Assembly: GCA_035492855.1 (NCBI GenBank)
Contig: DATJIU010000012.1
Coordinates: 3,053 to 67,052, forward strand
DNA length: 64,000 bases
Direction of reading: 5' to 3'
Source: Dongiaceae bacterium
GTDB taxonomy: Bacteria > Verrucomicrobiota > Verrucomicrobiia > Limisphaerales > JAFMIX01
Shown here: positions 39,333 to 63,704 of the stretch, piece after piece
Position numbering within the stretch: the stretch's first letter is position 1
How the letters are laid out: every line of letters starts with the position of its first letter
Notes under the pieces: generated by a model
What the model was told of the DNA's origin: nothing
The model's database searches: none
Seen by the model: the letters and a program-made list of their open reading frames with translations, nothing else
Translations under genes and position numbers: made by a program

Positions 39333-39448
39333 GCGGTCGCGGAACTTTTAAGTTCACGGACCTCCGCTCAAGCTCCGCGGTCTTGCTCCGGGCTGGGGAG
39401 CTTTTATACTCACCGCACGGAGCAAACACCCAGCGAGACAGTCATTCC

Positions 39449-44009: not shown

Positions 44010-44066
44010 TAAAAGAATTCCGCCGGGCGGCGCGATTCCTATTTACAGCCCCCGGTTGACTGTTAG

Positions 44067-44423
<357 letters not shown>

Positions 44424-46233: not shown

Positions 46234-46308
46234 GTCTCGGCGGCCCCGGAGCGGCGCCGGCAAAAAAAATTGCTTTGGCCTTGGGCCGCCCATCCTTAAC
46301 CTTTCCGC

Positions 46309-47294: not shown

Positions 47295-48266
47295 ATGCCA
47301 CTTCCCCTCGACCAGATTCTTGTCGGCGATTGCCTGAAGTCGCTGCGCCAGCTCCCTGATGCCAGCGTGGATGTTTGTTTTGCCGATCCGCCCTTCAACC
47401 TCAAGAAACGCTACGGCAAACACGACGATGCCATGGCCTTGGAGGAATATCTGGCCTGGTGCGAGCAGTGGATTCTGGAACTGGTGCGCGTAACCAAACC
47501 CACTGGCAGCATCTTCCTCCACAACATCCCCAAGTGGCTCACATATTACGCGGCCATCCTCAACCGCAGCACGCACTTCCGGCATTGGATTGCGTGGGAC
47601 GCCATGAGCACGCCGCTGGGCAAGACGCTGATGCCGGCGCATTACGGCATCCTCTTTTATACGAAGGCCGCCAAGGGTTACAAATTTAACGAAATCCGCG
47701 CCCCGCACAAACGCTGCCGGCTCTGCAACGGGTTTCTCAAGGATTACGGCGGCAAGAAGGACATGATGCATGCGTTCGGCCAGTTGGTGAGCGATGCCTG
47801 GACGGATATTCACCGTATCAAACACAACAAACGCCGCGACGAACATCCCTGCCAGTTGCCCATTCACCTGCTGGAACGTGTCATTTTAATGAGCACCGAC
47901 CCGGGGGACGTGGTGCTGGATCCGTTTCTCGGCACGGGCACCACGGCCATTGCTGCCAAGCAGCTCGGCCGGCATTACATCGGCCTGGAACTGGATGAGA
48001 ATTACGCCCGCATTGCCGAACAGAAACTCGCGCGCACCGGCCCCAGCCGGCATGAAGGATTTTTTGTATCGCTGTACCTCGGCAAGCTGCAGACGATCCG
48101 CGAAGTGGATGCGAAGCAGCTTTTTCCGCCGCAATTGACGAAGCAACAGAAACGCGCCAAAAAAGAAGCGCCGCGGCCCGAGGAGCCGGAACTGATTGAC
48201 GTGCCGCGCCAACGCCGGCCCCGGCGCCGGGTCAGTGCTTCCGCCGCGCCGGCAGGTAAACCGTAA
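47295..48266 (+). CDS. Beta-class N6-adenine/N4-cytosine DNA methyltransferase (orphan)
   Basis: 323 aa. Motif IV 'ADPPFNL' precedes motif I 'DPFLGTGTTAIAA' (the beta-class order), and 'HPCQLPIHLLERVI' is present. The C-terminal tail is basic and disordered. It starts 8 nt after the ABC gene. No restriction-enzyme gene is nearby. Confidence 0.85.
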   Translation: MPLPLDQILVGDCLKSLRQLPDASVDVCFADPPFNLKKRYGKHDDAMALEEYLAWCEQWILELVRVTKPTGSIFLHNIPKWLTYYAAILNRSTHFRHWIAWDAMSTPLGKTLMPAHYGILFYTKAAKGYKFNEIRAPHKRCRLCNGFLKDYGGKKDMMHAFGQLVSDAWTDIHRIKHNKRRDEHPCQLPIHLLERVILMSTDPGDVVLDPFLGTGTTAIAAKQLGRHYIGLELDENYARIAEQKLARTGPSRHEGFFVSLYLGKLQTIREVDAKQLFPPQLTKQQKRAKKEAPRPEEPELIDVPRQRRPRRRVSASAAPAGKP

Positions 48267-49515
48267 AGGCCGTGCCAAGACCTTCGTCGGTATGCACCCA
48301 CAGCAGGCCGGTGGCGGCCTTGACCAGCCGCAGCACAATGCTCAGGCCTAGGCCGGTGCCGTTGCGCGCGGATTTGGTGGTGAAGTAGGGATCAAAAATC
48401 TTGGGCAACACCTCCGGGGGAATGCCCGGCCCGGTGTCCCGCACCGTCAGGGCCACCAGCGGCGCGGTGTTGTCAAAGCTTTCCACATTGAGCCAGCGGT
48501 CGCCGGGCCCGTCCTTGATCTGCGCCGGTGACAGCACTTCAGCGAGCACTTCCCCCAGGATTTCCACCCGATGGCTGTGCGCGGTGCATTGGAACGCATT
48601 GGTGGCCAGGTTCAGCAGGATCTGGATGAGGTCCGTGCCGTTGATGCTCACCAGCACATCTTCGTGCAACGGGCGCAGCACAAATTCATTGTTTTGCACG
48701 CTGGGATGCACGCGGATCAGTTCACCGAGGTCGGTCAGCAGCTGGTTGACCCCCACCACGGTGGAAGAATCGGACTGCCGGCGCAAAAACCCGAGATACC
48801 GCCGGGAAATTTCAATGCAGTTGGTCACCTGCCGGGTGATGGTCTTGAGCCGGTCCTTGACGAAATCCAGGTCTTCCGTATCCAGTTCCGTGGCGCTGCC
48901 CATGCGCTGGTTGATCAACTGGATGTAACCGGAGATGACTGTAAGCGGCCCGTTGATGTCGTGAATGATGCTGGCGTAGATGTCACCCCGGGCGCGGAAA
49001 ATCTGGCCCTCCATCTTCTGGTTCTGCAGTTCGGAGAGCAACTGCTGCAGCTGCTGGGCGTTATCCTGGATTTCCCCGGCAAGGGAACGCCGGTGCATGG
49101 CATTGGCTACAGCGGAACGGATGGTCGAAATGTCGAACGGCTTGTTGATGTAATCACAGGCCCGCAACCGCAAGGCCTGGCGCATGGTGTCGGCCGTCTC
49201 AAACGCGGTCATCATCACCACTTCGATGTGCGGGTCCACGAATTTGAGGCGTTCCAGCACTTCAATGCCCGACATTCCGCCCATGCGGATGTCCAGCACG
49301 GCCACGTCAATCCGGTTTTGCTGGGCAAATTCGATTGCACTTCGGCCATCGGCGGCGAGCAGGAGGTTGTACTCATCTTTGAAGACCACGCGCAGCGATT
49401 GCCGGGGTCCTTCCTCGTCATCTACCACCAAAAGAGTACCGCGACGGGGCAGCAATGGAACCACCGAAGGCGGTGGCGGAGTCCTTACGACCTCAACTGG
49501 GGGGGCTAGGGACAT
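48232..49515 (-). CDS. Receiver-histidine kinase fusion (REC + DHp + HATPase)
   Basis: The start is taken at ATG 49515 (MSLAPPVEV...). The REC is canonical ('LLVVDDEEG', 'VLDIRMGGMSG', 'MMTAF', 'INKPF'). The DHp is 'ASIIHDINGPLTVISGY'. The HATPase has 'LLNLATNAFQ', 'RDTGPGI' and 'GTGLGLS'. Confidence 0.85.
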   Translation of the reverse strand: MSLAPPVEVVRTPPPPSVVPLLPRRGTLLVVDDEEGPRQSLRVVFKDEYNLLLAADGRSAIEFAQQNRIDVAVLDIRMGGMSGIEVLERLKFVDPHIEVVMMTAFETADTMRQALRLRACDYINKPFDISTIRSAVANAMHRRSLAGEIQDNAQQLQQLLSELQNQKMEGQIFRARGDIYASIIHDINGPLTVISGYIQLINQRMGSATELDTEDLDFVKDRLKTITRQVTNCIEISRRYLGFLRRQSDSSTVVGVNQLLTDLGELIRVHPSVQNNEFVLRPLHEDVLVSINGTDLIQILLNLATNAFQCTAHSHRVEILGEVLAEVLSPAQIKDGPGDRWLNVESFDNTAPLVALTVRDTGPGIPPEVLPKIFDPYFTTKSARNGTGLGLSIVLRLVKAATGLLWVHTDEGLGTAFTVYLPARRKH

Positions 49516-49597
49516 CACATTATTAGGTCGAATACTACGCGAACGACTCGACCACTCAAGCACAAATGTCCGAAAGCTGGAAAAAGCGGCCCGAGGC

Positions 49598-51694
49598 TCA
49601 ATGAGCCACCTTTTCGGCGAGAGGCGTCCCGGTGCCGTTGGATTCCTGCGGGAGGGAGATGCGCACCACCCCGTTTTGCCCGGCTTTGGTGGGCAAAATC
49701 TCGAGCTTGCCATGATGCGTCTCGATGATGCGGCGGCAAACGGTCAGGCCTAGGCCCAAGCCCACATTGCGGGTGGTAAAGAAGGGTGCGGGTACTTTTT
49801 GGGCCAATTCCGGGGTGAATCCGGTCCCGTTATCCTTAATTTCGATGTTCAACCCGGATTCTGTGACATGACCATTGCCATTGGCTAAAGCCACTTCCAG
49901 CAGGCGCACTCCAATTTGGGGGTCGCCCGGGTTGGACTGCAGGGCATTGAGAATAATTTCGGCGAGAGCGTGTTTCAAGGCCGCCCGGTCACCGGTAACG
50001 ATAATGGGCTTGCCGGAGTCCTCATATTTGAGCCGGGCACTCTTAACTGGCTGATATTTCTGCGCTTCTTCGTAAGCCTCTTCGATGAGCGGGCCTAGCG
50101 GGAAAGCCTCGCTAGCCACGATGCCATCCCGCGCAAGGAAGCGCATCTGATTGATCAACCGAGAGATGCGTTTTACGCCATCAGCCAATGCCACATCCAA
50201 AGAGGCCCGGAATTCCGGGTCTTTGTAGCGGTCGGACAATAGTTGCTGGTGAGTGGAAAGCGGCACCAAGGCATTGCCAACTTCATGGGCCAAGCGGTCC
50301 GCCATGGTCTTGACCAGACGCAAATTGGAGGCTTCCAGTTCCAGCTTCTGCAACTGCTCGGTCTGGGTAAGGTCTTCCACGACAAGCAGGGCAGCGCTGG
50401 GTAATGCCGAGTTTTGGCGCTGGAACGGCACTACATTTATGTTGAAGACCTGACGGCGGGTTGATTCCGCCGGTTCAAATTTAAACGGTTCCACCGCCGT
50501 GCCGGTCTTGAGCACCTGGTAAATCTTGCCACCGAGCATCTGCGGCAGGTCGGTGAATTCCAAATCGCCGGCGCGCGGTCCCAGCCGGCCAAACAGCCGG
50601 CGGGCGGCTTTGTTGGCATGCAGGATGGCGAGGTCGCGGCTGACTACGACGCAGGCGCTGCTGAGTTCGCGCAGCACATCGGCCATCATCTCGTTGTTGG
50701 CCGCCACCTGGTCGTGCAACCAGATGTTCTTGATGGCAAGGCCCAACTGCTCCAAGAGGTGAAAAATCAGTTCCAGCTCGTTGTTGGCCAGCGGTTCGCC
50801 GGTGATGCGGCCGTCAAACACCGCCACGCCGACAAGGTTTTCTCGGTCCAGCACCGGCACAGCCACCTGGGCCCCGAGCAGTTCAAATTCCTTCTGGGTT
50901 TCGATGTCGGTGCGGGATTCATCGCTATTGCGGCGCAGGATGCGCCCGGAGCGGACCAACTGACCGCCAATGCCCACTTCCAAGGAAAGTTCCAGATGGT
51001 CCAGCAACCCCTGCGGCAGGCCCACGGCGCAAACCGAACGCAACCGGCGGGCGTCGTCGGGATTTCCGGCAAACCCGGAAGCCGGCTGGCGCAAAAAGAT
51101 GGCCGCCCGATTGATGCCCATGATCTCGCGCAGCATCAGCAGAAACTGCTTCAGCATGGCCTCCGAATTCAGCGAGTGGGTCAGGATCGCGGAAAAATCG
51201 CGCAGCACCTCCCAGGTTTTGTAGGCGCTGGGGCGGGTGATGAAATTGGTATCATCCGGATTGGAAATACTTTCCAAGGAAGTCATGTTTCCGGAAGTCT
51301 TGCCGGCGGATTTGGTGGGCGCCGTCAGGATTGCGGGCTCGGTCCACAAACGGGCGAGCACGGCGTTCAACATGCGGGCGCGGACCGGCTTGTTCAGCAC
51401 GTGCCGGACACCCTTGAGATATGCCTCCTCCTCCCACTCCCAAGATTTTTCGCTGGTAAAAACCAGCAGGGGAACCTGGGTCAACCGGCGCTGCAGTTTC
51501 TCAATCAGCCACACGCCCTGCACGTTCGTGCAGTCCATGTCTACCACGCAGGCCTGAACCAGACCATGGGCCAAAAGGGGCTCAGCCTCCTCCAAGTTCA
51601 TGCGGTGAACGACCCGATAGTCCGCCGGGTTGAGGGCGGCACGGATGGCCTCCGCCAACTCAGGATGTTCAGCCAAAACTAAAAGGGTTCTCAC
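49598..51694 (-). CDS. Atypical-receiver / GAF / PAS sensor histidine kinase
   Basis: 698 aa. The REC-like N-domain lacks the acidic pair ('LVLAEHPE') but keeps 'VVDMD' and 'LNKPV'. The GAF block runs from 'LREIMGINRAAIFL...' to '...VPVLDRENLVGVAVF'. A PAS-like 'VVVSRDLAILHANKAARRLFG' follows. The DHp is 'MADRLAHEVGNALVPL' and the HATPase has 'ILNALQS', 'KDNGTGF' and 'GLGLGLT'. Confidence 0.85.
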   Translation of the reverse strand: MRTLLVLAEHPELAEAIRAALNPADYRVVHRMNLEEAEPLLAHGLVQACVVDMDCTNVQGVWLIEKLQRRLTQVPLLVFTSEKSWEWEEEAYLKGVRHVLNKPVRARMLNAVLARLWTEPAILTAPTKSAGKTSGNMTSLESISNPDDTNFITRPSAYKTWEVLRDFSAILTHSLNSEAMLKQFLLMLREIMGINRAAIFLRQPASGFAGNPDDARRLRSVCAVGLPQGLLDHLELSLEVGIGGQLVRSGRILRRNSDESRTDIETQKEFELLGAQVAVPVLDRENLVGVAVFDGRITGEPLANNELELIFHLLEQLGLAIKNIWLHDQVAANNEMMADVLRELSSACVVVSRDLAILHANKAARRLFGRLGPRAGDLEFTDLPQMLGGKIYQVLKTGTAVEPFKFEPAESTRRQVFNINVVPFQRQNSALPSAALLVVEDLTQTEQLQKLELEASNLRLVKTMADRLAHEVGNALVPLSTHQQLLSDRYKDPEFRASLDVALADGVKRISRLINQMRFLARDGIVASEAFPLGPLIEEAYEEAQKYQPVKSARLKYEDSGKPIIVTGDRAALKHALAEIILNALQSNPGDPQIGVRLLEVALANGNGHVTESGLNIEIKDNGTGFTPELAQKVPAPFFTTRNVGLGLGLTVCRRIIETHHGKLEILPTKAGQNGVVRISLPQESNGTGTPLAEKVAH

Positions 51695-51944: not shown

Positions 51945-53195
51945 CTATTCTGCCGAGATGAGTTTCTCCCACAGCGCATCGTTGAGCAGCACTTTTTCGA
52001 GCAGATTTTCGTTGCCCCCGTTCATTGGCGGCCGGTTGGAGTTGGTGAGCAGCCGGATCTTGAAAATGGTCCCCTGGCCGGGCTCGCTGGTGGCTTCAAT
52101 CTTGCCGCCGTGATGGTGCACGATGAAGAAGCACGCCATAAGATTGATGCCGTATTCCATCGGCGTATCGGTGCGCAGGACAAACGGATCGAATACCAGG
52201 CGCAGGGCCTCCTGGGGCAGGCCGGGGCCGTTGTCCTGGACTTGCAGGTGCACTTCGCCGTTGGGAGCGCTTTGCGCCGTGAGCGTGACCTTGGAACCGG
52301 AGGGCAAACTCACAATCTCGTCCTGCAGCAACAGTTCGAACAGCCGGGAAAACTTGGGCCGGTCCACTTGCAACGCGGGCAGGTCGGCCGGGATGAGGTT
52401 TTCCACGGTGATGTTTTTGGCGGCAAAGGCGGCCTGCAACCGGGTGATGGCGTCGTTCAACACATCGCGCAACAGCACCAGGTCGTCAAAGGTCATCGTG
52501 GGCGATTCCGACGCCGCCCAGAGGTCCTTGAGCATGTTGTTGATCTTCTCAATCTGCGTCTGGACGTTCTGGTAATATTCCTTCCAGAAATCGGGATTGC
52601 GCAACTCGTCCGCGCTCATCTTTTCCTCCTGGAGCTTGGAGGGGGCGAGGTCCAGGAAGGTTTTCACGGCCACCAGCGAATTCCGGATGTGATGGCTCAA
52701 TCCCGTGGCCAGCAGGCCCAGACTGACGATGCGGTCCGCAATCATCATGTTATGCAGCACCGAGAGCTTCTCGCGCAGCAACTGGTCGCGCTCGGACTGC
52801 ACCATGAAAAATTCCAGCCCGCGCTTGAGGGTGTGTTCCAGTTGGGGCGGGTCCCAGGGCTTGGTGACGTACTTGTAAATGGCGCCGGTATTCACGGCGG
52901 CAATGGCCGCATCCATGTCGGAATACGCGGTGGCGAGGATGCGGATGATGTGGGGCCGGAGCTGTCGCGCCCGTTCCAAAAGCCACACGCCCTTTTCGCC
53001 GGGCATCCGCTGGTCGGTCATCAGCAGCCCGATTTCGTCGGCATGCTGCTCCAGCAATTTCAAACCCTCCTGCGCGTTCATCGCGGTCAGAATGCGGAAC
53101 TGGTCGGAGAAGGCGCGTGAAAAATTTTTCAGCGACTGGGTCTCGTCATCCACATAGAGGATGTAAAACTTTTTGTAGTCGTATAGGTGATCCAT
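51945..53195 (-). CDS. Response regulator with a histidine-kinase-like output domain (PhcR-like architecture)
   Basis: 416 aa. REC motifs are 'ILYVDDETQ', 'LLMTDQRMPGEKG' and 'YVTKPWD'. The DHp-like motif is 'GLSHHIRNSLVAV'. The HATPase-like domain has altered N-box ('LLLQDEIV') and G2 ('EYGINL') but an intact G1 ('QDNGPGL'). It lies 17 nt after the upstream kinase. Confidence 0.85.
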   Translation of the reverse strand: MDHLYDYKKFYILYVDDETQSLKNFSRAFSDQFRILTAMNAQEGLKLLEQHADEIGLLMTDQRMPGEKGVWLLERARQLRPHIIRILATAYSDMDAAIAAVNTGAIYKYVTKPWDPPQLEHTLKRGLEFFMVQSERDQLLREKLSVLHNMMIADRIVSLGLLATGLSHHIRNSLVAVKTFLDLAPSKLQEEKMSADELRNPDFWKEYYQNVQTQIEKINNMLKDLWAASESPTMTFDDLVLLRDVLNDAITRLQAAFAAKNITVENLIPADLPALQVDRPKFSRLFELLLQDEIVSLPSGSKVTLTAQSAPNGEVHLQVQDNGPGLPQEALRLVFDPFVLRTDTPMEYGINLMACFFIVHHHGGKIEATSEPGQGTIFKIRLLTNSNRPPMNGGNENLLEKVLLNDALWEKLISAE

Positions 53196-53212
53196 AATCG
53201 CCGTTCCGCCTT

Positions 53213-55888
53213 TTAATGCCCCTCTTTGAGGGGAAATTCCAGTGTAAACTCACAGAACTTGCCGGGCTCGCTCCGCACCTGGATGCGCCCGTCCGCCTCC
53301 TTGACGATGCGGTAGCAGATGCTCAGGCCCAAGCCCATGCCCTGGCCCACGTCCTTGGTAGTGAAGAACGGGTCGAAAATTTTGTTCAGATGCTCGGCCT
53401 CGATGCCCGGACCATTGTCCCGGATAATCATCAGGCTGCGCCCGTTTTCCACCCGGCTTTCCACGCGCACGGTGGGCTTTTCGCCGTTGGCAAACTGCTT
53501 CTGCCGGAGGGCGTCGAGGGAATTTTGCAGCAGGTTAACGCAAACCTGGATGAGCTTGTTCTTGTTAACCGTCACGGTTTGTTCCTCGTCCAGGTATTTC
53601 TCCAACTGTACGGTTTCCCGCAGTTCATGGCTCAAGAATCGCAGCGCCGAGCCCATCACTTCCGTCACTTTCACCGTCTCCAGCTTGGTGCCGTCGTGAT
53701 GCGCGAACGGCCGCAGGTCGGAGACAATGTTCATCACCCGTTTCAGGCCGTCTTCCACGTCCTGGATGATGTCGGCGTATTCCGCCTGCTGTTCCGCCGC
53801 CACGAAGCGGCTCTTCTGTTTCAGCGTGTACAGGGCCTGGTTGGCATAGTTCAGCGGGTTGTTGATCTCATGGATGATGCCCGCGCTCATGCGCCCCAAC
53901 GACGCGAGTTTTTCACTCTGCACTAGTTGCGATTCCGTCTCCTTGAGTTGGCCGATGGCCGAGGCCAGCGCCTGATTCTGCTTGGCCAGTTCCGTCTGGT
54001 ATTCGTGCGATTCCAGCAAGTTCTTGATGCGGACGTGCAGTTCGGTGGTGGAAAACGGCTTGCCCAGAAAATCGTTGGCCCCGGCTGAGAGCGCCGTCAG
54101 CTTGGTGGCTTCGTCCGCCCGTGCGGTCAGCATGATGATGGGGATTTTCTGCGTGGTGGCCTGGGCCCGCAACTCGCGGCAGACCTGCAGGCCGTCCTTT
54201 TCCGGCATGTTCATGTCCAGCAGAATGATGTCTGGCAGCAACCCGGTGGCCTTCTCCACCGCCTGCTTGCCGTCCTCAGCTTCGATCACCCGGTAATAGC
54301 TGGTCAGCTGGGACTTCAAAAACCGCCGCATGTCCGGCTCGTCATCCGCCAGCAACAGACGCGCCCGCAAAGAAACATCCAGTTCATCAGTCGTCGCCGG
54401 AGCCTCCAACGGCGGGGCGATGGCGGGGAACAGTTCCGCCCGCCGGTACAGGCCCACCAGCCATTCGTCTGACTGGGCCGCCGGAACGGCGCCGGCCGGG
54501 GCCGCCGCCGGAACAGCCGCCGCGGCTTCCCGCCCGGCCGGGGTTTCGGCCGGGGGTGTTTCGGCAATCAGGTAAGGAATGGAAACCGTGAATGTGGTCC
54601 CCTGGCCCTCCTGGCTGACCACGGTCACCGTGCCGCCGTGCAACTCGGTGAGTTCCTTGACGAGCGACAGCCCGATGCCCACCCCCTGAAATTTGCGGTT
54701 GGAGGAATTATCCGCCTGCCAGAACCGGTCGAACACATGCGGCAGACTTTTGGCGGCGATGCCGACGCCGGTGTCGCGCACGGTCACCACCAGGTTTTCG
54801 CCTTCGCGGCGCGCGCGCAGTTCCACCAGGCCGTCCTTGGGCGTAAACTTGAGCGCGTTGAAAATGAGGTTCAGGAACACCTTTTCCAGCTTGTCGCGGT
54901 CGGCCAGGATGGCGTCCATGCCCGCGGCGGCGGACATTTCCAGGCGGATCTGCTTGGCTTGGGCCATCTGCTGCGTGGCGGCGGTGAGGCCCTTGATGAA
55001 GGCATTGATTTCCATCGGCTCGCGCTTGACCTCCAGCCGGCCGGACTCCAGCCGCACCAATTCCAGCAAATCGTTGATCAGCTTGAGCAACCGCATGCCG
55101 TTGGCGTGCATGATGCCCAGCAGATTGCGCGAGGCGGCATCCAGCGGGCTCCGCGGCTGGTGCAGCAAGGTTTCCAGCGGCGAGAGCAGCAGCGTCAGCG
55201 GCGTGCGCAGCTCGTGGCTGATGTTGGCAAAGAAGCGGCTCTTGATCTGGTCCAGTTCCACCAGTTTCTGGTTGCTCTCCTCGAGCGCCTTTTTGTTCTG
55301 GTCCAGTTCAAACCGCAGGGCAAATTCCCGAAACCGCCAGTGGCTGTGCACGTAGCTTCCGGTCACCACGATCACTCCCGTCAGGGCGAGAAAATACAGG
55401 TTGTTGGCAAAGGCCACCTGGGAGATGTGCCCGTGCGCGATGCAGGCGCCGACATACATCAGGACCACCAGGCTGACGGCGATCAAACTTTCAATCAGGG
55501 TCCAGTACAGCACGAAGCCGATGACCAGCAGCACCAGGTTCAATCCGGCGTAATACGGCGAGACCGAGCCTTCGGTCACAAAAATCATCCAGGAAATGAA
55601 CGAAGTCGGAAACATCGCCAGCAGCACCCCCAGGACGCGCGGGTGCTTCCGGCCCGCTGGCGAATCCACCACAGCCCAAAAAATGGCGATCAACGCCGAA
55701 CACGCCAGCCGCAAAATGAAAAAATGCCCCACCCGGGAGCGATACACAAAGTAATCCAGCACCACTCCCGCCGGCATCAGCAGCATGCCAATCCAGCAGC
55801 CGACCTTGACATTGTTGATGATGCTTTGCCGGTCATATTCGGCAAAGGCCCGCCGAATTTCGGGAGTATTGGTGAACGAGCTAGGCAT
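53213..55888 (-). CDS. Membrane-embedded hybrid histidine kinase with two kinase cores flanking one receiver
   Basis: The start is taken at ATG 55888 (MPSSFTNTPEI...). There are six hydrophobic helices in the first ~215 aa. Core 1 has HisKA 'ISHELRTPLT' and an HATPase ('RDTGVGI', 'GVGIGLS'). The REC has 'LLLADDEPD', 'LLDMNMPEKDG' and 'GKPF'. Core 2 has a DHp 'GIIHEINNPLNY' and an HATPase ('LLQNSLDA', 'RDNGPGI', 'GMGLGLS'). Confidence 0.85.
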   Translation of the reverse strand: MPSSFTNTPEIRRAFAEYDRQSIINNVKVGCWIGMLLMPAGVVLDYFVYRSRVGHFFILRLACSALIAIFWAVVDSPAGRKHPRVLGVLLAMFPTSFISWMIFVTEGSVSPYYAGLNLVLLVIGFVLYWTLIESLIAVSLVVLMYVGACIAHGHISQVAFANNLYFLALTGVIVVTGSYVHSHWRFREFALRFELDQNKKALEESNQKLVELDQIKSRFFANISHELRTPLTLLLSPLETLLHQPRSPLDAASRNLLGIMHANGMRLLKLINDLLELVRLESGRLEVKREPMEINAFIKGLTAATQQMAQAKQIRLEMSAAAGMDAILADRDKLEKVFLNLIFNALKFTPKDGLVELRARREGENLVVTVRDTGVGIAAKSLPHVFDRFWQADNSSNRKFQGVGIGLSLVKELTELHGGTVTVVSQEGQGTTFTVSIPYLIAETPPAETPAGREAAAAVPAAAPAGAVPAAQSDEWLVGLYRRAELFPAIAPPLEAPATTDELDVSLRARLLLADDEPDMRRFLKSQLTSYYRVIEAEDGKQAVEKATGLLPDIILLDMNMPEKDGLQVCRELRAQATTQKIPIIMLTARADEATKLTALSAGANDFLGKPFSTTELHVRIKNLLESHEYQTELAKQNQALASAIGQLKETESQLVQSEKLASLGRMSAGIIHEINNPLNYANQALYTLKQKSRFVAAEQQAEYADIIQDVEDGLKRVMNIVSDLRPFAHHDGTKLETVKVTEVMGSALRFLSHELRETVQLEKYLDEEQTVTVNKNKLIQVCVNLLQNSLDALRQKQFANGEKPTVRVESRVENGRSLMIIRDNGPGIEAEHLNKIFDPFFTTKDVGQGMGLGLSICYRIVKEADGRIQVRSEPGKFCEFTLEFPLKEGH

Positions 55889-57344
55889 CGCCGGGTTTGC
55901 GCACTTCGATGAACACGTTGACCCCGATGTTTTCCGTGATGACCCGGACATTCTCGGCCGGCGCCTCATCCGGGGCCAGCGTGGCAAAGCCGGCGCCATT
56001 CCGGTAGATCAAATGCCAGTCCAGCAGATATTCCATCGAGTAGCGGAACGGGCGCGAGGCGTTCATGGCATCGCTGACGTTGGTGGCGAGCAACAAGCCC
56101 CCCGGCGCCAGCATTTCATAAAAAATGTTCATCAACCGCTTGCACACCGGGTCGGACAAATAGTCAAACAACCCCGCGCAATAGACCAAATCGTACTTCT
56201 GGTCGTCCGCCAGCCCGCCGGCCCGGCCGCGATCCTTCAGAATCTGATGCACCGATTTCTTGATGAACTGGACCGGATTGCCCGCCGTCTGCCGGGACTG
56301 GATGGCGCCCAGTGCGCGGCGGGCGTATTGCAGCGTTTCTTCGTTGAAATCCAGCAAGGTGAAATCCGTCCAGACGCTCAGATGCCCGTGTTCATTGAAA
56401 AACCGCTGGATTTCCTGTGCCGGACCGCAGCCCAGGTTGAACACCTGCGCCACCTTGTGGTGGGTGGACATCCGCACCGCCTCGGCGACCAGCTTGCGGC
56501 ACAAATAATCCACGCGATTGCGGTGCGCTTCCGCCGGCGACTGTCCCAGCAGCCAGACATTGATCACTTTGGCGAACAGGGAATCCCCTTCCTGCGGCGG
56601 CCGCAACATCATGTCCACCATTTCATAATCCCCGGCATAGCCCAGCGGTTTGTGATACGTGCGGCTCGCAAAGGGGGAACTCAGCAGCAGGGGGTGCATC
56701 TGCCGGCGAAAATACATTTGATGCGCGGGTTCCAAATCCGCCTCGAGGCTCCCCGCAATGGCTTCAAATTGATCAATGAAAGTGTCAATGGATCGCGTGA
56801 CCGGCCGGGCCAGTTCCGTCACAATGCGGCGCTCCACTTCGGGCCGGTCCGGCACCGCGGCGGCCCGAACTTCCAATTCCACTTGGTTGAGCCACAACTG
56901 CAACCCGGCCAGGTAGCTCTGCAGGTCCGCCACCACCAGCTTGAATTCCGGCAGCACCTTGTACAGCTTCTGCCACTCCTGCATGAACTGCCGGTACTCG
57001 GCATCCAGCCGCTTGTTCAACTGGCCGTTGGTGGCCGCCAGGCTGAGATCCATCCACGCGCTCTCGCTCAAGGTGACCTCGCAGACGACGGTCGCCGGCC
57101 CGGTGTTGATGAGCCCGCGCACCACCGCCTTGCCCGCATACAACAGGCGGGGGCCCGCCTTCACCTGAAAGTCCGCCAGCACTTCCGAAAGCCGCACCGC
57201 GGCCGGCGGGTTGTACATTTCAAACACCGCGGTAAAACGCGTCAGTTTCAGCAGCTTGCCCTGCAACTCTTGGCCCTGCACAAGCTTGCCGGTCACCGTG
57301 CTCTCCCGGATCATCCCCGGGCTGGTATCATTTTTTTCCGCCAT
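55881..57344 (-). CDS. SAM-dependent methyltransferase with a long N-terminal domain (PhcB-like by architecture and context)
   Basis: 487 aa. The C-terminal half carries class-I MTase motifs: 'VFNLGCGPAQE' (motif I), 'FTLLDFNEE' (acidic post-I) and 'YDLVYCAGLFDYL' (motif II), followed by 'LAPGGLLLATN'. The N-terminal ~230 aa have no recognised catalytic motif. The stop overlaps the kinase start by 8 nt. Confidence 0.7.
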   Translation of the reverse strand: MAEKNDTSPGMIRESTVTGKLVQGQELQGKLLKLTRFTAVFEMYNPPAAVRLSEVLADFQVKAGPRLLYAGKAVVRGLINTGPATVVCEVTLSESAWMDLSLAATNGQLNKRLDAEYRQFMQEWQKLYKVLPEFKLVVADLQSYLAGLQLWLNQVELEVRAAAVPDRPEVERRIVTELARPVTRSIDTFIDQFEAIAGSLEADLEPAHQMYFRRQMHPLLLSSPFASRTYHKPLGYAGDYEMVDMMLRPPQEGDSLFAKVINVWLLGQSPAEAHRNRVDYLCRKLVAEAVRMSTHHKVAQVFNLGCGPAQEIQRFFNEHGHLSVWTDFTLLDFNEETLQYARRALGAIQSRQTAGNPVQFIKKSVHQILKDRGRAGGLADDQKYDLVYCAGLFDYLSDPVCKRLMNIFYEMLAPGGLLLATNVSDAMNASRPFRYSMEYLLDWHLIYRNGAGFATLAPDEAPAENVRVITENIGVNVFIEVRKPGDA

Positions 57345-57413
57345 AAACGCCTTCGCCGTTCATTCGTCCCCGTCCCGCGCGGCAACTCAAATCCGCCAAA
57401 CCCGCGCCGGCTC

Positions 57414-58664
57414 TCAAAAATGCCACTGCATTGACACCGCCACCGCGTGGCTGATGTAATCATATTTCCCGTCCGTCGTCTGCCCGGAGACCGGCGAAGC
57501 CGCGCTGCCGGAAACCGTCCGGGTCCCGGCAAATCCAAATTGATACGCCACGTCAAAATCCAACCGCTGGCCCTTATGCCCGATGCCCACGCTCAGGAAA
57601 TGACGGTCCAAATCGGTTGCCAGCGGGGTATAATTTGCGTCCGGCACCGAATTTTCATTGAAAATATAACCGCCGCTCACGTGCCAGCCGTGGTCCAGAT
57701 ACCGGGTCACCCCAAACTCGTAATACCAGCTCGATTGCCAGTTCAGCACCAGCGGGATGTTTTGCCCCAGCGCCGTTGGCGCCGATTGTTCCACCACCAG
57801 CGACTTCACGCTGCTCCAGTCGGTGTAGTCGGCATTGAATTCCAGGTTCCACGCCGGCGTGGGCCGGTAGGAAATGCCAAAGATCGCCTTGTAAGGCAAA
57901 GGCAGGTCCGTCCGGGCCGACGTGCGCTCGGCAAAGGCCCCGATGTTGTCTTCGGTATGCCCCCGCATATTGATCGTGCTGCCGCTCCGGAAGGTCACCC
58001 CCACCGCGATTTTCTCGTGCGGCTTCCACAGCATTCCCAGATTGTACGCCACATCCCAGCCGTCACCGTCAAACCGGAAGCCGTCCGTCGGCTGGGTGGG
58101 ATTAAACAATCCCTGGCGCAAATCCGTCATCGCGAACACCGCCGAAACCCCGCCACCAATCGAGAACGTGGGCGACACCTTAAATGCCACGACCGGGTTG
58201 AGCGCCAGCGTGCTCAGTGAAGATTCGGTCGCCAGCGTGCGAAAGCCGGTGTCCTGCGGCCATTTCACTCCCAGCCCAAACGGCGAATACAATCCCACGC
58301 CAAAGCTCCACGGCGAATCCGCCGCCGTGTAGGTGTAGTAAAACTGCGGGATCGCATGCAGTTTGTCATCATTGTGATACTCGGATCCGGCATTGGCCCC
58401 GGTGGTGGAAGTAAAGGTGGGCTCCAAATCAATGCCATAAATGCCCGCTCGCAGGTTTTGTCCCGCCAGTTGCGTAATGCCCGCCGGATTGTAATAAATC
58501 GCCGACGGATTGTCCGCCGTGGCCACAAATGCCATGCCCCGGCCGATCACAAAGGCATCCTGATCCGGCAAATCATACCCGGCAGCCTGGGCCGAAACGG
58601 CCACCAGTGTCATGTTTCCAGCCACCAAACCCAGTGGCAGCAGCCTTTTTGAGCTCTTTTTCAT
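57414..58664 (-). CDS. Outer-membrane transport protein, OMPP1/FadL/TodX family
   Basis: 416 aa. Signal peptide 'LVAVSAQA', 'AGYDLPDQDAFVIGRGMAFVATADNPSAIYYNPAG' typical of FadL-family N-termini, an alternating beta-strand pattern and a terminal aromatic (…MQWHF). Confidence 0.9.
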   Translation of the reverse strand: MKKSSKRLLPLGLVAGNMTLVAVSAQAAGYDLPDQDAFVIGRGMAFVATADNPSAIYYNPAGITQLAGQNLRAGIYGIDLEPTFTSTTGANAGSEYHNDDKLHAIPQFYYTYTAADSPWSFGVGLYSPFGLGVKWPQDTGFRTLATESSLSTLALNPVVAFKVSPTFSIGGGVSAVFAMTDLRQGLFNPTQPTDGFRFDGDGWDVAYNLGMLWKPHEKIAVGVTFRSGSTINMRGHTEDNIGAFAERTSARTDLPLPYKAIFGISYRPTPAWNLEFNADYTDWSSVKSLVVEQSAPTALGQNIPLVLNWQSSWYYEFGVTRYLDHGWHVSGGYIFNENSVPDANYTPLATDLDRHFLSVGIGHKGQRLDFDVAYQFGFAGTRTVSGSAASPVSGQTTDGKYDYISHAVAVSMQWHF

Positions 58665-58732: not shown

Positions 58733-59662
58733 CTAAGCTTTTTCCACGGCCGACCGCAGGGCGGCCTCACTGCCATACCGGGGTTGCCACCCCTTGCCGC
58801 GCAACTTCGCGTTGCTGCCGGTAAAATCCACCAGCATGTCGGCGATCCAGCACGGATGCACCGGCGAGCCCAGGTACTGCCACTTGAAATGGGTGATAAA
58901 ACGGGCCAACCCCAGCGGGACGGTGGGCACAAAACGCTTGCCCACCAACCGCCACACGTCCTGCAACCGGATGAAATCATCCGGCACCACGTTGAACGTT
59001 CCCGGCAATTCCGTGCGCAACGCCAGGATGAAAGCCGCCGCCACGTCTTCCTCATGGATGAACTGGCGCCGCGGATTGTAACCCCAAAAATTCACCGCAT
59101 TCTCCCGGTAACTCTTTATCACCGGCTGGTTGCGTGGCCCGATGATGTAAATGGGCCGGAGCATCGACAGCAGTACGTCCGTGCCTTGGAAAATCTGGTT
59201 CAGGGTCTTTTCCGCCGCGGCTTTGGCGTTCCAGTAGTAATAGGGCGAATCCCCCCGCCCCAAGGCGAAATCCTCCGTGACGTCCGACTGGCCCCGGGCC
59301 AGAACCGGATCGTAGGCCGCCATGCTGCTGGTGTGGACAAACCGTCGCACCCCGCTCGCCAGTGCGGCCTGCGCCACATTGCGCACCCCGTTCAAGTTGA
59401 TGTCATCGCGTTCCTGCACCGTCATTTTCCGCGACCACAGCACCACGCACGCGGTATGCACTACCACATCGTGTCCCGCCATCACCGTCGCCAGCCCCGG
59501 CGCCCGCATGTCCTGCCGGACAAATTTCATCTTGGCCGGCAGCGACCGGCGCGGCTCGCTCAATCCGATCCCCGTGATGCCCTCCACTTCCGGCATCGCC
59601 GCAAAGCGCTCCCCCAGCAGGCTGCCCAGGTATCCATTTGCACCGGTCAGAAAAATCCGCAT
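58733..59662 (-). CDS. NAD-dependent epimerase/dehydratase family (extended SDR) protein
   Basis: The start is taken at ATG 59662 ('MRIFLTGANGYLGSLL' Rossmann loop), preceded by an AAGAAGG Shine-Dalgarno-like run. The ORF-track TTG at 59680 would overlap the upstream SDR gene. Confidence 0.85.
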   Translation of the reverse strand: MRIFLTGANGYLGSLLGERFAAMPEVEGITGIGLSEPRRSLPAKMKFVRQDMRAPGLATVMAGHDVVVHTACVVLWSRKMTVQERDDINLNGVRNVAQAALASGVRRFVHTSSMAAYDPVLARGQSDVTEDFALGRGDSPYYYWNAKAAAEKTLNQIFQGTDVLLSMLRPIYIIGPRNQPVIKSYRENAVNFWGYNPRRQFIHEEDVAAAFILALRTELPGTFNVVPDDFIRLQDVWRLVGKRFVPTVPLGLARFITHFKWQYLGSPVHPCWIADMLVDFTGSNAKLRGKGWQPRYGSEAALRSAVEKA

Positions 59663-59676
59663 GCCGTGGCCTTCTT

Positions 59677-60519
59677 TCAATGTTTTCCGGAACGGTTCCG
59701 GTTTTGCGCGTCCACCACGCGTTGAAAAAAGTCATTCGCCCCGGTCTGGCCCGCAATCCACTCGCCCAGTCGGGGGAACAGCGCCGTGAACGCCAGCAAC
59801 GGCCGGACGGGCAGTGAATTGACGATGACTTCGGGCCGGTCGTCTTCAATGGCCCGGATCACCGCCCGCACCACCGCCTCCGGCGGCGAGGTGCCCAGCA
59901 ACGCCGGCGCGGCGCAACCGCTCGCGGCCTTCAGCTTGGCATAAATGCCCGCTTCCACAAATCCCGGCACGATCACCGAAGCACTCACGCCGTTCCGCCG
60001 GTACGTGGCCCGCAATGAAGCGGTGAAGGCAATCAGTCCCGCCTTGGTGGCGGCATAGGGTTCCTGGTACGCCGGCCCGGACTTGCCGGCCAGCGAGGCC
60101 ATGTTGATAATGTGCCCGCTCCGGCGACGCACCATCTCGGGCAGCACCAGTTTGGTCATGACCATGGGCGCCTCCAGGTTCACCCCGATGATGTCCCGGA
60201 TATTTTCCTCGGTCAGTTCGTGGTAGGCGGAGGTAATTTCCACCCCGGCGTTGTTGATCAGGATGTCCACCTCGCCCAGGTTCCGATGCACCTCGTCCAG
60301 CAGTTGGTGCCGCTGCGCGGGATCGCGCAGATCGGCCGCCAGGGAAAACGCCTCGCAACCGCTCGCCGCCACCGAACGCTGCAGCTCCTCCAGTTCGATG
60401 CCCGGAAACGCCACCAAAGCCAGTTTGACTTTTCGTTCGGCCAGCGCCCGGGTGATGTGCACTCCCAGTCCTCCGGTGGCGCCGGTCACCAACACTGTCT
60501 GCCCGGTTGAAATTTTCAT
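59677..60519 (-). CDS. Classical short-chain dehydrogenase/reductase (FabG-like SDR)
   Basis: 280 aa. 'VLVTGATGGLGVHI' (TGxxxGxG), 'NNAG', and 'YAATKAGL' (the YxxxK catalytic motif). Confidence 0.9.
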   Translation of the reverse strand: MKISTGQTVLVTGATGGLGVHITRALAERKVKLALVAFPGIELEELQRSVAASGCEAFSLAADLRDPAQRHQLLDEVHRNLGEVDILINNAGVEITSAYHELTEENIRDIIGVNLEAPMVMTKLVLPEMVRRRSGHIINMASLAGKSGPAYQEPYAATKAGLIAFTASLRATYRRNGVSASVIVPGFVEAGIYAKLKAASGCAAPALLGTSPPEAVVRAVIRAIEDDRPEVIVNSLPVRPLLAFTALFPRLGEWIAGQTGANDFFQRVVDAQNRNRSGKH

Positions 60520-60570
60520 GACGTCAGGGGCACGCTAGTCCATGGCCTGCGGCCGAACAATCAAATTCGA

Positions 60571-61713
60571 TTATCGTTTTCGTTGATTCATTGATTCGGT
60601 AATGGCGCTGCTGCGGGGCGTCGGACCGCGCAGCCAAAGCACCAAAACCAACCCGCCCAGCAATAACGCCGCCGCGGCCAGAATCAGCCCCCACCGGCCC
60701 GTGCGGTCTGCCGTTGCTGTTGCGTCCGGAGCGCCCGGGGCAGCAGCCGGAGCCACCGCCGCCGCTGACGGTGCTGTGGTCGCGGGTGACACGGTTGCGG
60801 GTACAGCAACCGCAACCGGCGGTTGATGGGACGGCTCCAGCGGCACATTCGCAGATGGGGTGAGAGCCGGATTGGTCGCCGAGTTCTTGCTTTCCGCCAG
60901 TTGCGCTTCCGCCGCGATGATAGCGGCCACGCTGTCGTTGGTGGCGGTTGCCGGCGCGGGCGTCCCGGGCGACACATCCGGCGCGGCCGCCTTGTGGGAA
61001 TAATCCAAAATCAGGGGCGCATTGGTGGTATAAACCACTGCCGGCGGCGGCGGAGCTTCAACCTTGGCCGCCGGTAATTCCACGGGTTTGTTGGTGGCAG
61101 GCGGCAGGGCGGGAATGTGCACCGGCCCGCTGGCGGCATTGACCGTGCAGCCCACCAACGCCCCTTCCCGTGCCTGTAGTACGGTAACAAAAAGAGATTT
61201 TTCGGCGCGCAATTTCTCGCGCTGCGCCGCGTACGCCTGGTTGATGGCATCATCGAATGGCGTGCCCTGCACCGGCTCAAAACCGTCGGAAAACAACAGC
61301 ACAGTAAGCGTCGGCGAATTGGTCACCAGCGTGAGCAGGTCTGGCAGCACCGTGGCAATCCGGCCGGCGCCCCGGCAATCCTGTGCGCTGAGAAAGCCAT
61401 CCACCCGCCGGGCAATCTCCACCCGCTGGTCCGACCGCCACCGTTGCAATGGAAAATTGCCGGCATGCAGTTCGGTGTTGTACGTCCATACGCCCAGCGT
61501 GTCGCCCGCGCGCAACTGGCCATCCATTTGCGAACGCAGCAAGTCCTGGATGCACAACTGCGCCGCCGGCAATTGCGGCTGGTTGGCCCGCGCCGTTTCC
61601 ACGACCAGTAAAAAGCGGTTCTCTGCGTGAAGCGACGCCTGCAGCGCCACGATAAGAAAAAGCCCCACGCCCGCCCAGCGACCGAATATTGCCCCGCATC
61701 GCCTCATAAGCAT
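60571..61713 (-). CDS. Hypothetical secreted, C-terminally membrane-anchored protein with a possible MIDAS-less VWA-like N-domain and a P/A-rich linker
   Basis: ATG 61713 overlaps the upstream stop (TGATG). Signal 'GLFLIVALQASLHA', 'FLLVVETARA...LTVLLFSDG' reminiscent of a VWA fold without DxSxS, a long Pro/Ala/Thr low-complexity region, and the terminal TM helix 'WGLILAAAALLLGGLVLVLWL'. The family call is tentative. Confidence 0.5.
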   Translation of the reverse strand: MLMRRCGAIFGRWAGVGLFLIVALQASLHAENRFLLVVETARANQPQLPAAQLCIQDLLRSQMDGQLRAGDTLGVWTYNTELHAGNFPLQRWRSDQRVEIARRVDGFLSAQDCRGAGRIATVLPDLLTLVTNSPTLTVLLFSDGFEPVQGTPFDDAINQAYAAQREKLRAEKSLFVTVLQAREGALVGCTVNAASGPVHIPALPPATNKPVELPAAKVEAPPPPAVVYTTNAPLILDYSHKAAAPDVSPGTPAPATATNDSVAAIIAAEAQLAESKNSATNPALTPSANVPLEPSHQPPVAVAVPATVSPATTAPSAAAVAPAAAPGAPDATATADRTGRWGLILAAAALLLGGLVLVLWLRGPTPRSSAITESMNQRKR

Positions 61714-62186
61714 CAATGTTTTGGCCGCCGATAATTCGCGCGCTCGCGCCGGTTATATTGTTCCAGGTCCTGATTCAACTGCGTCTCCACCTGGCCCAGC
61801 ATTTGCAGAAAACTCGCGCAACTGGCCGTCAGGCCGCCGAGACCGGTAATGGTGTCGCGCTCGGCCAGATCGTCCGTCACCACCAGCACCTCGCCGTATT
61901 CCCGGAACCGGTACGCCGCCCGCTCAATCAAATCGTCCGCCGTCTGGCCCGTTCCGGAAAACAGCACTTCCACCTGCCGGGCAAATTCATCCGCCGTGCC
62001 CTTGCGCTTCGCCCCGGTGCCGTCGAAAAACACCGTCACCGGTGTGTGACTCGCGTCCTGATACCGCGTCAGCCACTGGATCAGCTCCTCGCGGGCGGCG
62101 GCGGAATGCCGCGCCCGGCCCGGCGCCAGTTCCGGCCAGTTGTGCAACAGGCTGTAGCCATCCACCAAAATCCGGACCAAGGCCAT
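61713..62186 (-). CDS. NYN/PIN-like domain protein (YacP/DUF901-like predicted RNA-binding nuclease)
   Basis: 157 aa. 'ILVDGYSLLHNWPEL', 'VTVFFDG' and 'SGTGQTADDLIE...VVTDD' match the YacP/NYN pattern. Confidence 0.7.
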   Translation of the reverse strand: MALVRILVDGYSLLHNWPELAPGRARHSAAAREELIQWLTRYQDASHTPVTVFFDGTGAKRKGTADEFARQVEVLFSGTGQTADDLIERAAYRFREYGEVLVVTDDLAERDTITGLGGLTASCASFLQMLGQVETQLNQDLEQYNRRERANYRRPKH

Positions 62187-62249
62187 GACGCCAATCAGTT
62201 ATGTTGCCACCCCACGAACCCGCAATGCCCTTCCGGCATGGCTCACGGC

Positions 62250-63704
62250 TCACTTGATGGTGAGTTCCTTGTGGATCTGGAATTTCTCCACCCGCTTGCG
62301 CAGCGTGGCGCGCGTGATGCCGAGCAACCGTGCCGCATGCACCTGGTTGCCGTTTACTTCCTTCAACGCCTGGATGATCAGCTCGCGTTCCACCGCCGGA
62401 ATGATTTTGCGTGACGGTTCCCGTCGCGCCCACCGAAACAGTTCCCCCGCCAGCGACACCAGGTCCAGGTCGCCGGTGGCGGTGACCGCCCCGGTTGCCG
62501 GCGCTCCGCTTGGCACTGACGGGGCCGCGCCCGGCCCGGAAATCTGCGGCGGCAAATCGCCCTGCAAAATGGCGTCACCCTTGGCCATCACCAGCGCGCG
62601 CTCGATCACGTTTTCCAGCTCGCGCACATTGCCCGGCCAGTGATACTGCACCAGCGCCTTGAGGCCGCTCTGGGAAATGGACTTCGGCCGCGTGCTCTGT
62701 TTTTCCTGGGCGAATTTCTTGAGAAAATAATTGATGAGCAGCGGAATATCCTCTCGGCGTTCGCGCAGCGGCGGAATCTGGATGCGCACCACGTTGAGCC
62801 GGTAGAACAGATCCTCCCGGAATTGCCGCGCCGCCACCGCCTGCTCCAGCGGCCGGTTCGTCGCCGCAATGACACGCACATCCACCGAGATGGGCTGGTT
62901 GCCGCCCACCCGCTCGAAGGTGCCGCTCTGCAACACCCGCAAAATTTTGGTCTGCGTGGCCGGCGTCATGTCGCCGATTTCATCCAGGAAAATCGTGCCG
63001 CCGTTGCATTGCTCAAAGCGCCCGATGCGCTGCCCGGTGGCGCCGGTAAATGCACCCTTCTCGTGCCCGAACAATTCGCTCTCCAGCAACTGTTCCGGAA
63101 TGGCCGCGCAGTTGATGGCCAGGAAGGGTTTTTCGCTGCGCTGGCTGTGATGATACACCGCGCGAGCCACGAGTTCCTTGCCCGTGCCGGTCTCGCCGGT
63201 GATGAGCGCGGTGGCATCGCTCGCCGCCAGCTGGCCGATGAGCTTGAAGACATTCTGCATCGGGCTGCTGCGGCCCACGATGCCCTGCTCATAATCCTCC
63301 GACTCCAGCAATGGCTGGTACGACACCACCTGCTTCATGTCGCGCGCCGCCTTGAGGGCGTCGGCCACGATCTGCTTGAGCTTGGGGACGTCAAACGGCT
63401 TGAGCAGGTAATCGTACGCGCCGTACTTCATCGCCTCGATCGCCATTTGCGTCGTGCCGTACGCGGTCATTAAAATCACCAGCAGCTTGGGCTCCGTCTG
63501 GCGCAGCTTGCGGAGCGTTTCCAGCCCGCTCATGCCCCCCATGCGAATATCCATGAGCACGAGGTCGGGCTTGAGCTTGGGAATGATCTTCAGCCCTTCC
63601 TCACCGCTGGAAGCCGTGGTCAGCTCCACATCCGGCGAATCAAAGATTCGCTGAAAGGAGTACTGCACGTCCGCTTCGTCATCGATCAACAGTATTTTAC
63701 TCAT
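62250..63704 (-). CDS. Sigma-54-dependent response regulator (NtrC/AtoC-type enhancer-binding protein)
   Basis: 484 aa. REC ('ILLIDDEAD', 'LMDIRMGGMSG', 'LLKPF'), AAA+ domain with 'GETGTGKE' and the sigma-54 contact loop 'GAFTGA', and a C-terminal Fis-type HTH 'GNQVHAARLLGITRATLRKRV'. Confidence 0.95.
   Translation of the reverse strand: MSKILLIDDEADVQYSFQRIFDSPDVELTTASSGEEGLKIIPKLKPDLVLMDIRMGGMSGLETLRKLRQTEPKLLVILMTAYGTTQMAIEAMKYGAYDYLLKPFDVPKLKQIVADALKAARDMKQVVSYQPLLESEDYEQGIVGRSSPMQNVFKLIGQLAASDATALITGETGTGKELVARAVYHHSQRSEKPFLAINCAAIPEQLLESELFGHEKGAFTGATGQRIGRFEQCNGGTIFLDEIGDMTPATQTKILRVLQSGTFERVGGNQPISVDVRVIAATNRPLEQAVAARQFREDLFYRLNVVRIQIPPLRERREDIPLLINYFLKKFAQEKQSTRPKSISQSGLKALVQYHWPGNVRELENVIERALVMAKGDAILQGDLPPQISGPGAAPSVPSGAPATGAVTATGDLDLVSLAGELFRWARREPSRKIIPAVERELIIQALKEVNGNQVHAARLLGITRATLRKRVEKFQIHKELTIK

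Follow-up and report, generated by a model that had tools for sequence, protein, structure and literature searches.

In Ralstonia, virulence is controlled by 3-hydroxy fatty acid methyl esters. The methyltransferase PhcB synthesizes the Ralstonia signal (PMC8578825, PMC10653808), residue H230 of the Ralstonia kinase PhcS is essential (PMC11960443), and the proteobacterial Phc system is an established autoinducer circuit (PMC8578825, PMC11960443). Genes of Cupriavidus and Paraburkholderia have been treated as phc homologues or orthologues (PMC6989110), and the Cupriavidus Phc system has been reported to be functional in a 2023 study whose survey of Proteobacteria found the phc cluster to be restricted to Betaproteobacteria (PMC10653808). 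Here, we describe a locus of a soil bacterium in a window of 64,000 nucleotides (nt) from assembly GCA_035492855.1 (contig DATJIU010000012.1, positions 3,053 to 67,052; coordinates below are positions in this window), in which four consecutive minus-strand genes code for a FadL-type channel, a PhcB-family methyltransferase, a membrane hybrid kinase and a receiver-bearing relay protein. A preliminary description, made from the DNA letters and their open reading frames (ORFs), had read them as a fatty-acid-ester-type quorum-sensing synthase, receptor and relay module with a dedicated outer-membrane conduit. That reading holds at the level of homology and synteny, through matches to PhcB, PhcS and PhcR/PhcQ and a census of related genomes, and we consider it reasonably likely that the locus encodes the Phc (phcBSR) quorum-sensing circuit in a verrucomicrobial form.

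At the Cupriavidus reference locus, the genes stand in the order phcB-phcS-phcR-phcQ and code for proteins of 463 (P0171), 443, 381 and 332 amino acids (aa), whose domain layouts (methyltransferase; MASE8-HisKA-HATPase; receiver-HisKA-HATPase; receiver only) are those of the phcB-S-R-Q architecture. The homologous gene on a plasmid of Paraburkholderia graminis is followed by one kinase and two response regulators. The proteobacterial type was further represented by 80 metagenomic loci with 42-93% identity to Cupriavidus PhcB, among which PhcS adjoins the methyltransferase in 59 of 60, PhcR comes next in 39 of 44 and PhcQ is found in 37 of 44.

In the window, the genes for the FadL/OMPP1/TodX-family channel (57414..58664), the PhcB-family S-adenosylmethionine (SAM)-dependent methyltransferase of 487 aa that is the candidate autoinducer synthase (55881..57344), the hybrid kinase (53213..55888) and the 416-aa relay protein (51945..53195) are separated, going by ORF coordinates, by a 69-nt gap, an 8-nt overlap and a 17-nt gap, with positions and spacing as they were first given. 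The kinase gene start at 55888 overlaps the methyltransferase stop codon; an alternative, longer ORF reaches 55999, and we prefer the shorter form because two relatives (L005 and L006) share the 8-nt overlap. The G+C content of the cluster (0.58-0.62) is like that of the window overall, and a scan for promoters and terminators was uninformative, with counts equal to the shuffle expectation.

The source label of the genome at NCBI is 'Dongiaceae' (Alphaproteobacteria). Despite this label, the nearest named homologues of the DnaA protein encoded in the window (81-84% identity) and the nearest named relatives of the methyltransferase are from Verrucomicrobia, and because both sets of closest relatives agree, the host is, by its proteins, a verrucomicrobium, in keeping with the non-proteobacterial background suspected earlier. 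Several labels of third-party annotation (TPA) genomes in the match lists (Bifidobacteriaceae, Clostridia, Binatia, Limnocylindria) are mutually inconsistent and look as unreliable as 'Dongiaceae'.

The methyltransferase aligns with Cupriavidus PhcB at 38% identity over 458 residues (317 bits, E 4e-108), its residues 23-480 pairing with 17-459 of the reference, N-terminal domain included, and with the P. graminis plasmid homologue at 39.5% identity over 92% of its length. By comparison, the generic Methyltransf_31/25/12 models of Pfam match only residues ~296-424, in the C-terminal third, with a best score of 33.6 bits, about a tenth of that of Cupriavidus PhcB, and the best PDB sequence match reaches 21 bits, that search having returned no solved structure for any relative. 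No Pfam or NCBIfam model matches residues 1-290, and NCBIfam has no specific model for the whole protein; because the alignment with Cupriavidus PhcB takes in this uncovered N-terminal domain, the homology is full-length. The affinity to PhcB proposed in the preliminary description thus goes well past generic methyltransferase similarity, and the motifs it had quoted (VFNLGCGPAQE, FTLLDFNEE and YDLVYCAGLFDYL) are present. Protein searches returned thousands of homologues at 50-64% identity, and many of the close ones are labelled at JGI as 'extracellular factor (EF) 3-hydroxypalmitic acid methyl ester biosynthesis protein'. In an alignment of 37 sequences across the verrucomicrobial and proteobacterial clades, 60 columns are invariant, with family-wide motifs in both the N-terminal domain (KPLGYAGDY, HRNR) and the catalytic domain (GCGPA.E, CAGLFDY). 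Searched exhaustively on its own, the N-terminal domain (residues 1-290) has matches in 1120 representative clusters at E ≤1e-3, of which 161 reach E ≤1e-30; since the full-length proteins among the 150 best matches listed are nearly all 450-510 aa long, the N-terminal domain is, judged by these matches, specific to the PhcB family.

An AlphaFold2 model of the methyltransferase (mean predicted local distance difference test, pLDDT, 85.5) places a predicted six-stranded PilZ-like barrel (aa 15-92, nt 57069-57302) and a predicted helical domain (aa 108-294, nt 56463-57023) ahead of a predicted Rossmann methyltransferase fold (aa 299-482, nt 55899-56450). The long non-catalytic region set apart in the preliminary description is accordingly modelled as two domains, which would give the PhcB family its first domain model. 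Modelled alone (pLDDT 85.4), the barrel finds its best matches in the PilZ domains of PP4397, MrkH, BcsA and YcgR (template-modelling score ~0.6, E 7e-4 to 1e-2). Pfam PilZ gives no match, and since the RxxxR and D/NxSxxG motifs by which PilZ domains bind cyclic di-GMP are not seen in the family consensus, we call the modelled barrel PilZ-like in fold only. About 120 Rhizobium plasmids (e.g., NC_008378.1, 590003-591067) carry methyltransferases that match only residues ~148-484 at 25-30% identity; these consist of the helical domain and the methyltransferase without the barrel and may be a truncated sister family.

The neighbourhood of the gene was followed in a single scan of species-representative genomes, which yielded at least 596 relatives; the best 80 of these, at 45-57% identity, were examined and are almost all labelled Verrucomicrobiota (Verrucomicrobiae, Limisphaerales, Verrucomicrobiales, Prosthecobacter). 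A PhcS-type sensor kinase lies directly downstream of the methyltransferase in 77 of the 80, two of the exceptions being contig ends, and a relay gene adjoins the kinase in all 63 of the 63 loci counted; because kinase and relay are kept to this extent, the arrangement is far beyond chance, and the linkage proposed from the window recurs in related genomes. Past the relay, the window has an accessory receiver-GAF-PAS-kinase (49598..51694) and an accessory receiver-kinase (48232..49713), both on the minus strand. A homologue of the former comes next after the relay in 21 of 63 loci and is also present in the contigs of P0003, P0010 and P0012, and a homologue of the latter is the next gene in 15 of 63. 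The methyltransferase-kinase-relay trio is also present in the cultured Verrucomicrobium spinosum DSM 4136 (L089, 8001-14183; ABIZ01000001.1), where the methyltransferase (WP_009961516.1; 36% identity to that of the window) is a 668-aa fusion with an N-terminal receiver and precedes genes for a sensor-kinase-receiver-kinase of 956 aa and a relay of 414 aa. The receiver on this predicted synthase suggests phosphorylation-dependent control of signal synthesis.

The hybrid kinase begins with a hydrophobic N-terminus (aa 1-205, 55274..55888) in which hydropathy identifies five clear membrane helices and one weaker one, compatible with the six transmembrane helices of the preliminary description; it had described only one catalytic core, and there are two complete cores in a kinase-receiver-kinase layout. 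Pfam places HisKA at 216-283, HATPase_c at 330-439, Response_reg at 512-621 and a second HisKA and HATPase thereafter. In BLAST, residues 30-204 align with 25-201 of Cupriavidus PhcS (33% identity, E 1e-18), and an hhalign comparison of 78 verrucomicrobial with 67 proteobacterial PhcS sensor domains gives a probability of 100% and an E-value of 1.6e-61 over 198 columns, with LDY..Y, IaWMI..TEG..SPYYaGLNL and Y..AC..HG as motifs common to both. By these alignments, the membrane domain of the kinase is homologous end to end with the PhcS sensor.

The resemblance to PhcS resumes in the second core (aa 631-891, 53213..53998), which shares 33% identity with the Cupriavidus PhcS core (E 4e-48 to 8e-53, 160 bits, vs 57 bits for the first core) and whose H-box, IIHEINNPLN, aligns with LLHEVNNPVN around His231 of the Cupriavidus protein, the counterpart of Ralstonia H230. 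Between sensor and second core lies a unit (53999..55273) made of a classical HisKA/HATPase core (aa ~206-450, H-box ISHELRTPL) and a receiver (aa ~506-630). Among the 80 related loci, 57 have complete hybrid kinases (790-1048 aa) and ten have kinases of PhcS length (447-525 aa). In nine of these ten (L013, L031, L033, L038, L040, L055, L080, L082 and L084), the sensor is followed directly by a core of the second type, with 61-64% identity to that of the window in eight loci and 47% in the ninth; in the tenth (L081), the sensor is joined to a domain of the first type. The inserted kinase-receiver unit is thus absent from nine plain verrucomicrobial kinases, as it is from Cupriavidus PhcS, and because these join the sensor directly to the core, the window gene looks, on this comparison, like phcS into which a receiver and a classical kinase core have been inserted at the boundary of the two parts. 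The same nine relatives indicate that plain and expanded forms of the predicted receptor coexist in Verrucomicrobiota.

In the relay protein, Pfam identifies a receiver followed by HisKA/HATPase domains, and this order of receiver, dimerization and histidine phosphotransfer (DHp) domain and ATPase is the layout of PhcR. Its receiver is closest to that of PhcQ (48% identity, 9e-38, 114 bits), followed by that of PhcR (41% identity, 6e-27, 86 bits), while none of the three other receivers of the cluster exceeds 42 bits against PhcQ or PhcR; with the linker included (aa 12-187), it gives the best PhcQ match, at 45% identity (E 5e-45). The ATPase-like half is degenerate: LLLQDEIV and EYGINL, the elements from which a weakened ATP lid had been proposed, are present, and in 62 relatives the DHp histidine and the G1 box (DnGPGL) are kept, the N-box asparagine is absent (LLlkdEl) and the G2 box is degenerate, so that the weakening is clade-wide. 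The window protein and its 62 homologues have, in addition, a conserved C-terminal tail past the ATPase-like domain (consensus Fl.kvllN..lWekLl), which is absent from Cupriavidus PhcR.

The assignment of the first gene as an OMPP1/FadL/TodX porin is borne out by the Toluene_X model (PF03349), which matches residues 19-416 of 416 over model positions 2-421 of 421 (196 bits vs a cut-off of 29.7, 9e-58); the product has an N-terminal signal-peptide-like segment (..VSAQA/AGY) and ends in ...QWHF. The protein is not the E. coli FadL equivalog (86.7 bits vs a cut-off of 585). Of the 67 related loci that offer at least 2 kb of upstream sequence, 40 carry FadL no more than 1 kb upstream of the methyltransferase gene (18 on the same strand, 22 divergent); where at least 8 kb is available on each side, FadL is upstream in 29 of 43 loci and downstream in one of 43. 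With a hidden Markov model built from the verrucomicrobial FadL genes, we found FadL in 52/80 verrucomicrobial and 2/80 proteobacterial-type loci. The FadL link is real and position-specific and, given this difference between the two sets, typical of the verrucomicrobial clade, and it is not universal. In the two proteobacterial-type loci with FadL (L102, 12896-14315; L156, 13139-14336), the gene follows phcB at a distance of a few kb and shares its strand. Directly upstream of Cupriavidus phcB are two tandem YceI-family genes (L002, 6303-7551). Periplasmic binding of lipids or polyisoprenoids is a property of YceI proteins, and in Proteobacteria the pair might correspond to the FadL link, or its position might be coincidental.

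In a verrucomicrobial Phc circuit of this kind, the methyltransferase would convert a lipid carboxylate to its methyl ester, a hydrophobic autoinducer; as in Ralstonia, the substrate would most likely be a 3-hydroxy fatty acid. Through FadL, the autoinducer would cross the outer membrane by lateral diffusion, chiefly so as to re-enter and be perceived, and the six-helix domain of the kinase would sense it inside the inner membrane. Phosphate could then run from the first kinase core to the internal receiver, on to the PhcS-type second core and finally to the receiver of the relay, which, because its ATPase is degenerate, would most likely serve as a phosphotransfer or phosphatase scaffold rather than an autokinase. 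The two further receiver-kinases may be lineage-specific add-ons.

It is conceivable, if unlikely, that the circuit logic is the same and the methyltransferase makes another hydrophobic methylated molecule in place of a 3-hydroxy fatty acid methyl ester. Proteobacterial PhcB is matched at only 37-39% identity, as against 45-64% inside the verrucomicrobial clade; the clade-specific FadL linkage could reflect a bulkier or more hydrophobic ligand; and a structure search with the whole methyltransferase model returned generic small-molecule methyltransferases only, with no clue to the substrate. A similar class of ligand is nevertheless suggested, because the 60 invariant columns extend over the N-terminal and catalytic domains in both clades and the receptor domain is conserved from end to end.

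An improbable alternative dispenses with autoinduction altogether: FadL would import an environmental lipid or hydrocarbon, the kinase would sense it and the methyltransferase would modify or detoxify it, somewhat as TodX operates with TodS/TodT. Channels of the FadL/TodX type typically take up hydrophobic substrates from outside the cell (PMC7728783), which fits such a scheme. However, the invariant core of the locus is the methyltransferase-kinase-relay trio, with FadL an optional partner, its homologous counterpart in Proteobacteria is well established as an autoinducer circuit (PMC8578825, PMC11960443), and no catabolic genes are conserved alongside, the short-chain dehydrogenase/reductase (SDR) and epimerase genes upstream of FadL recurring in at most 2/43 loci.

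We regard it as very improbable that the enzyme is a protein methyltransferase that tunes signalling proteins in the manner of CheR-type adaptation, with no small molecule involved. The predicted PilZ-like barrel could serve as a protein-interaction module, one distant plasmid homologue is annotated as CheR, and Pfam CheR does match the window protein (E 0.0035), but this match is below the cut-off and spans only 40 residues of the SAM-binding region; moreover, the structural neighbours are small-molecule methyltransferases and PhcB is described as the Ralstonia signal synthase (PMC8578825, PMC10653808). A chance cluster of generic two-component genes beside a generic methyltransferase, which the abundance of two-component genes in the window might bring to mind, is refuted by the census, in which order and overlap are kept in 77/80 and 63/63 Verrucomicrobiota and 59/60 proteobacterial-type loci.

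Several observations weigh against a direct equation of the locus with the Ralstonia circuit. The reference Phc proteins were the Cupriavidus and Paraburkholderia orthologues, used in place of those of R. solanacearum, as none of the R. solanacearum proteins PhcB, PhcS and PhcR was among the top 120 matches of either protein search; at this level of relatedness (38% identity), the enzyme may act on another substrate than Ralstonia PhcB does. The kinase-like half of the relay does not specifically resemble the output of PhcR (41 bits over 73 aa), no separate PhcQ-type gene follows the relay in the window, and no LysR-family protein, the family of PhcA, was found among the 34 window ORFs scanned, which include most of the large ones. 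About a third of loci lack a FadL gene near the methyltransferase, and none adjoins the V. spinosum trio. Finally, a local Pfam scan for MASE8 (PF20968) gave no match in the window kinase, and a verrucomicrobial homologue and Paraburkholderia PhcS reached 17.4-17.6 bits (cut-off 26.2); because a true PhcS also scores below the threshold, the silence on the window kinase is uninformative. Precomputed Pfam tables assign MASE8 to Cupriavidus PhcS and to verrucomicrobial homologues of the kinase.

Literature searches turned up neither a paper that connects phcB to Verrucomicrobia nor a characterized autoinducer synthase or quorum-sensing system in Verrucomicrobiota, in agreement with the earlier remark that no Phc-type system had been characterized in such a background. 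The bare PhcB homology is already implicit in databases, because the automated JGI labels carry the PhcB-derived name; no paper analysing it was found. Given that the trio recurs in at least 80 species-level verrucomicrobial genomes, lipid-ester cell-to-cell signalling, reported as restricted to Betaproteobacteria, probably also exists in Verrucomicrobiota, as far as homology can tell. The wider proposition, which strikes us as evenly balanced, is that Verrucomicrobiota, abundant in soil and freshwater, possess a phylum-wide Phc-type lipid-ester circuit with a dedicated FadL conduit, a kinase-receiver-kinase PhcS, a pseudo-kinase relay and, in V. spinosum, a receiver-synthase with phospho-controlled signal production. 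If so, Phc signalling would be an ancient cross-phylum language and not a speciality of Ralstonia and Cupriavidus. The conserved trio, which extends to a cultured type strain, makes quorum sensing in Verrucomicrobiota directly testable, and the clade-specific FadL linkage offers a natural experiment on the outer-membrane passage of hydrophobic signals. Soil Verrucomicrobia that make or sense related esters could cross-talk or interfere with bacterial-wilt pathogens.

Upstream of FadL, five genes on the same strand (58733-63704; sigma-54 response regulator, NYN/YacP, a 381-aa protein without a family, SDR and epimerase) are joined by short junctions, and their order mostly recurs, without the epimerase, in the closest contig (P0003). 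None of the SDR, epimerase, 381-aa, NYN and sigma-54 genes is accepted as part of the module, each occurring in at most 2/43 loci, and the suggestion that two SDR genes belonged to it has to be dropped. At the other end, the last receiver-kinase ORF (48232-49713, counted from its first ATG) overlaps the 49598-51694 gene by 116 nt; its true start is probably further downstream on account of this overlap. Behind this kinase array is a hairpin with a T-run (48171-48154, minus strand). The dnaA gene (44866-46233, plus strand) adjoins the lowest-GC stretch of the window (42000-46300; 0.54-0.57 vs ~0.61), and the chromosome origin probably lies ~2 kb from the kinase array; there are two near-consensus DnaA boxes upstream of dnaA (44530 and 44854), and the search for such boxes gave no clear cluster. 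The region 3468-43574 is dense in glycoside hydrolase genes (GH38, GH2, GH92 and two rhamnosidases), with a sialate-esterase-like gene and a laminin-G/Ig protein, and also codes for a kinase of 1198 aa (22488-26084) and for a kinase-receiver-AraC hybrid (26103-28235); the whole resembles a polysaccharide-utilization region with its own hybrid regulator. A Ser/Thr protein kinase (35036-36580), a sigma factor of the extracytoplasmic function (ECF) type with DUF6596 (38981-40744) and an N6/N4 DNA methylase (47295-48266) are unconnected to the Phc-type module.

Among other known systems, the alpha-hydroxyketone systems CqsA/CqsS of Vibrio and LqsA/LqsS of Legionella likewise combine a lipid-like autoinducer, a synthase gene beside a multi-helix membrane-sensing kinase and a phosphorelay output. 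Their synthase is unrelated, being a pyridoxal phosphate (PLP)-dependent acyl transferase and not a methyltransferase, and no sequence relationship to them was seen. A FadL-family channel acting at the outer membrane on a hydrophobic quorum signal has a parallel in rhizobia, where Sinorhizobium FadL is reported to modulate extracellular long-chain acyl-homoserine-lactone signals (PMC9938287); in that system, the signal belongs to the acyl-homoserine lactones and the FadL gene does not lie next to those of the synthase or receptor. TodX with TodS/TodT and related FadL-plus-sensor pairs for hydrocarbons also have a FadL-family channel (channel mechanism in PMC7728783) encoded with a sensor kinase for a hydrophobic ligand, but serve the catabolism of external substrates, with neither a synthase nor a PhcS-type sensor. 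From phcBSRQ of Ralstonia and Cupriavidus, the window locus differs in the classical core and receiver inserted into its kinase, in a single relay gene with a degenerate ATPase instead of PhcR and PhcQ, in the up to two more receiver-kinases after the verrucomicrobial relay, in FadL as a common neighbour, in that no PhcA was seen among the ORFs scanned, and in its host phylum, Verrucomicrobiota. It shares with phcBSRQ a full-length PhcB-family predicted synthase, a kinase gene directly downstream in the same gene order, a homologous six-helix sensor, a PhcS-type DHp/ATPase core, and a PhcR/PhcQ-type receiver on a protein that joins a receiver to a kinase-like domain.

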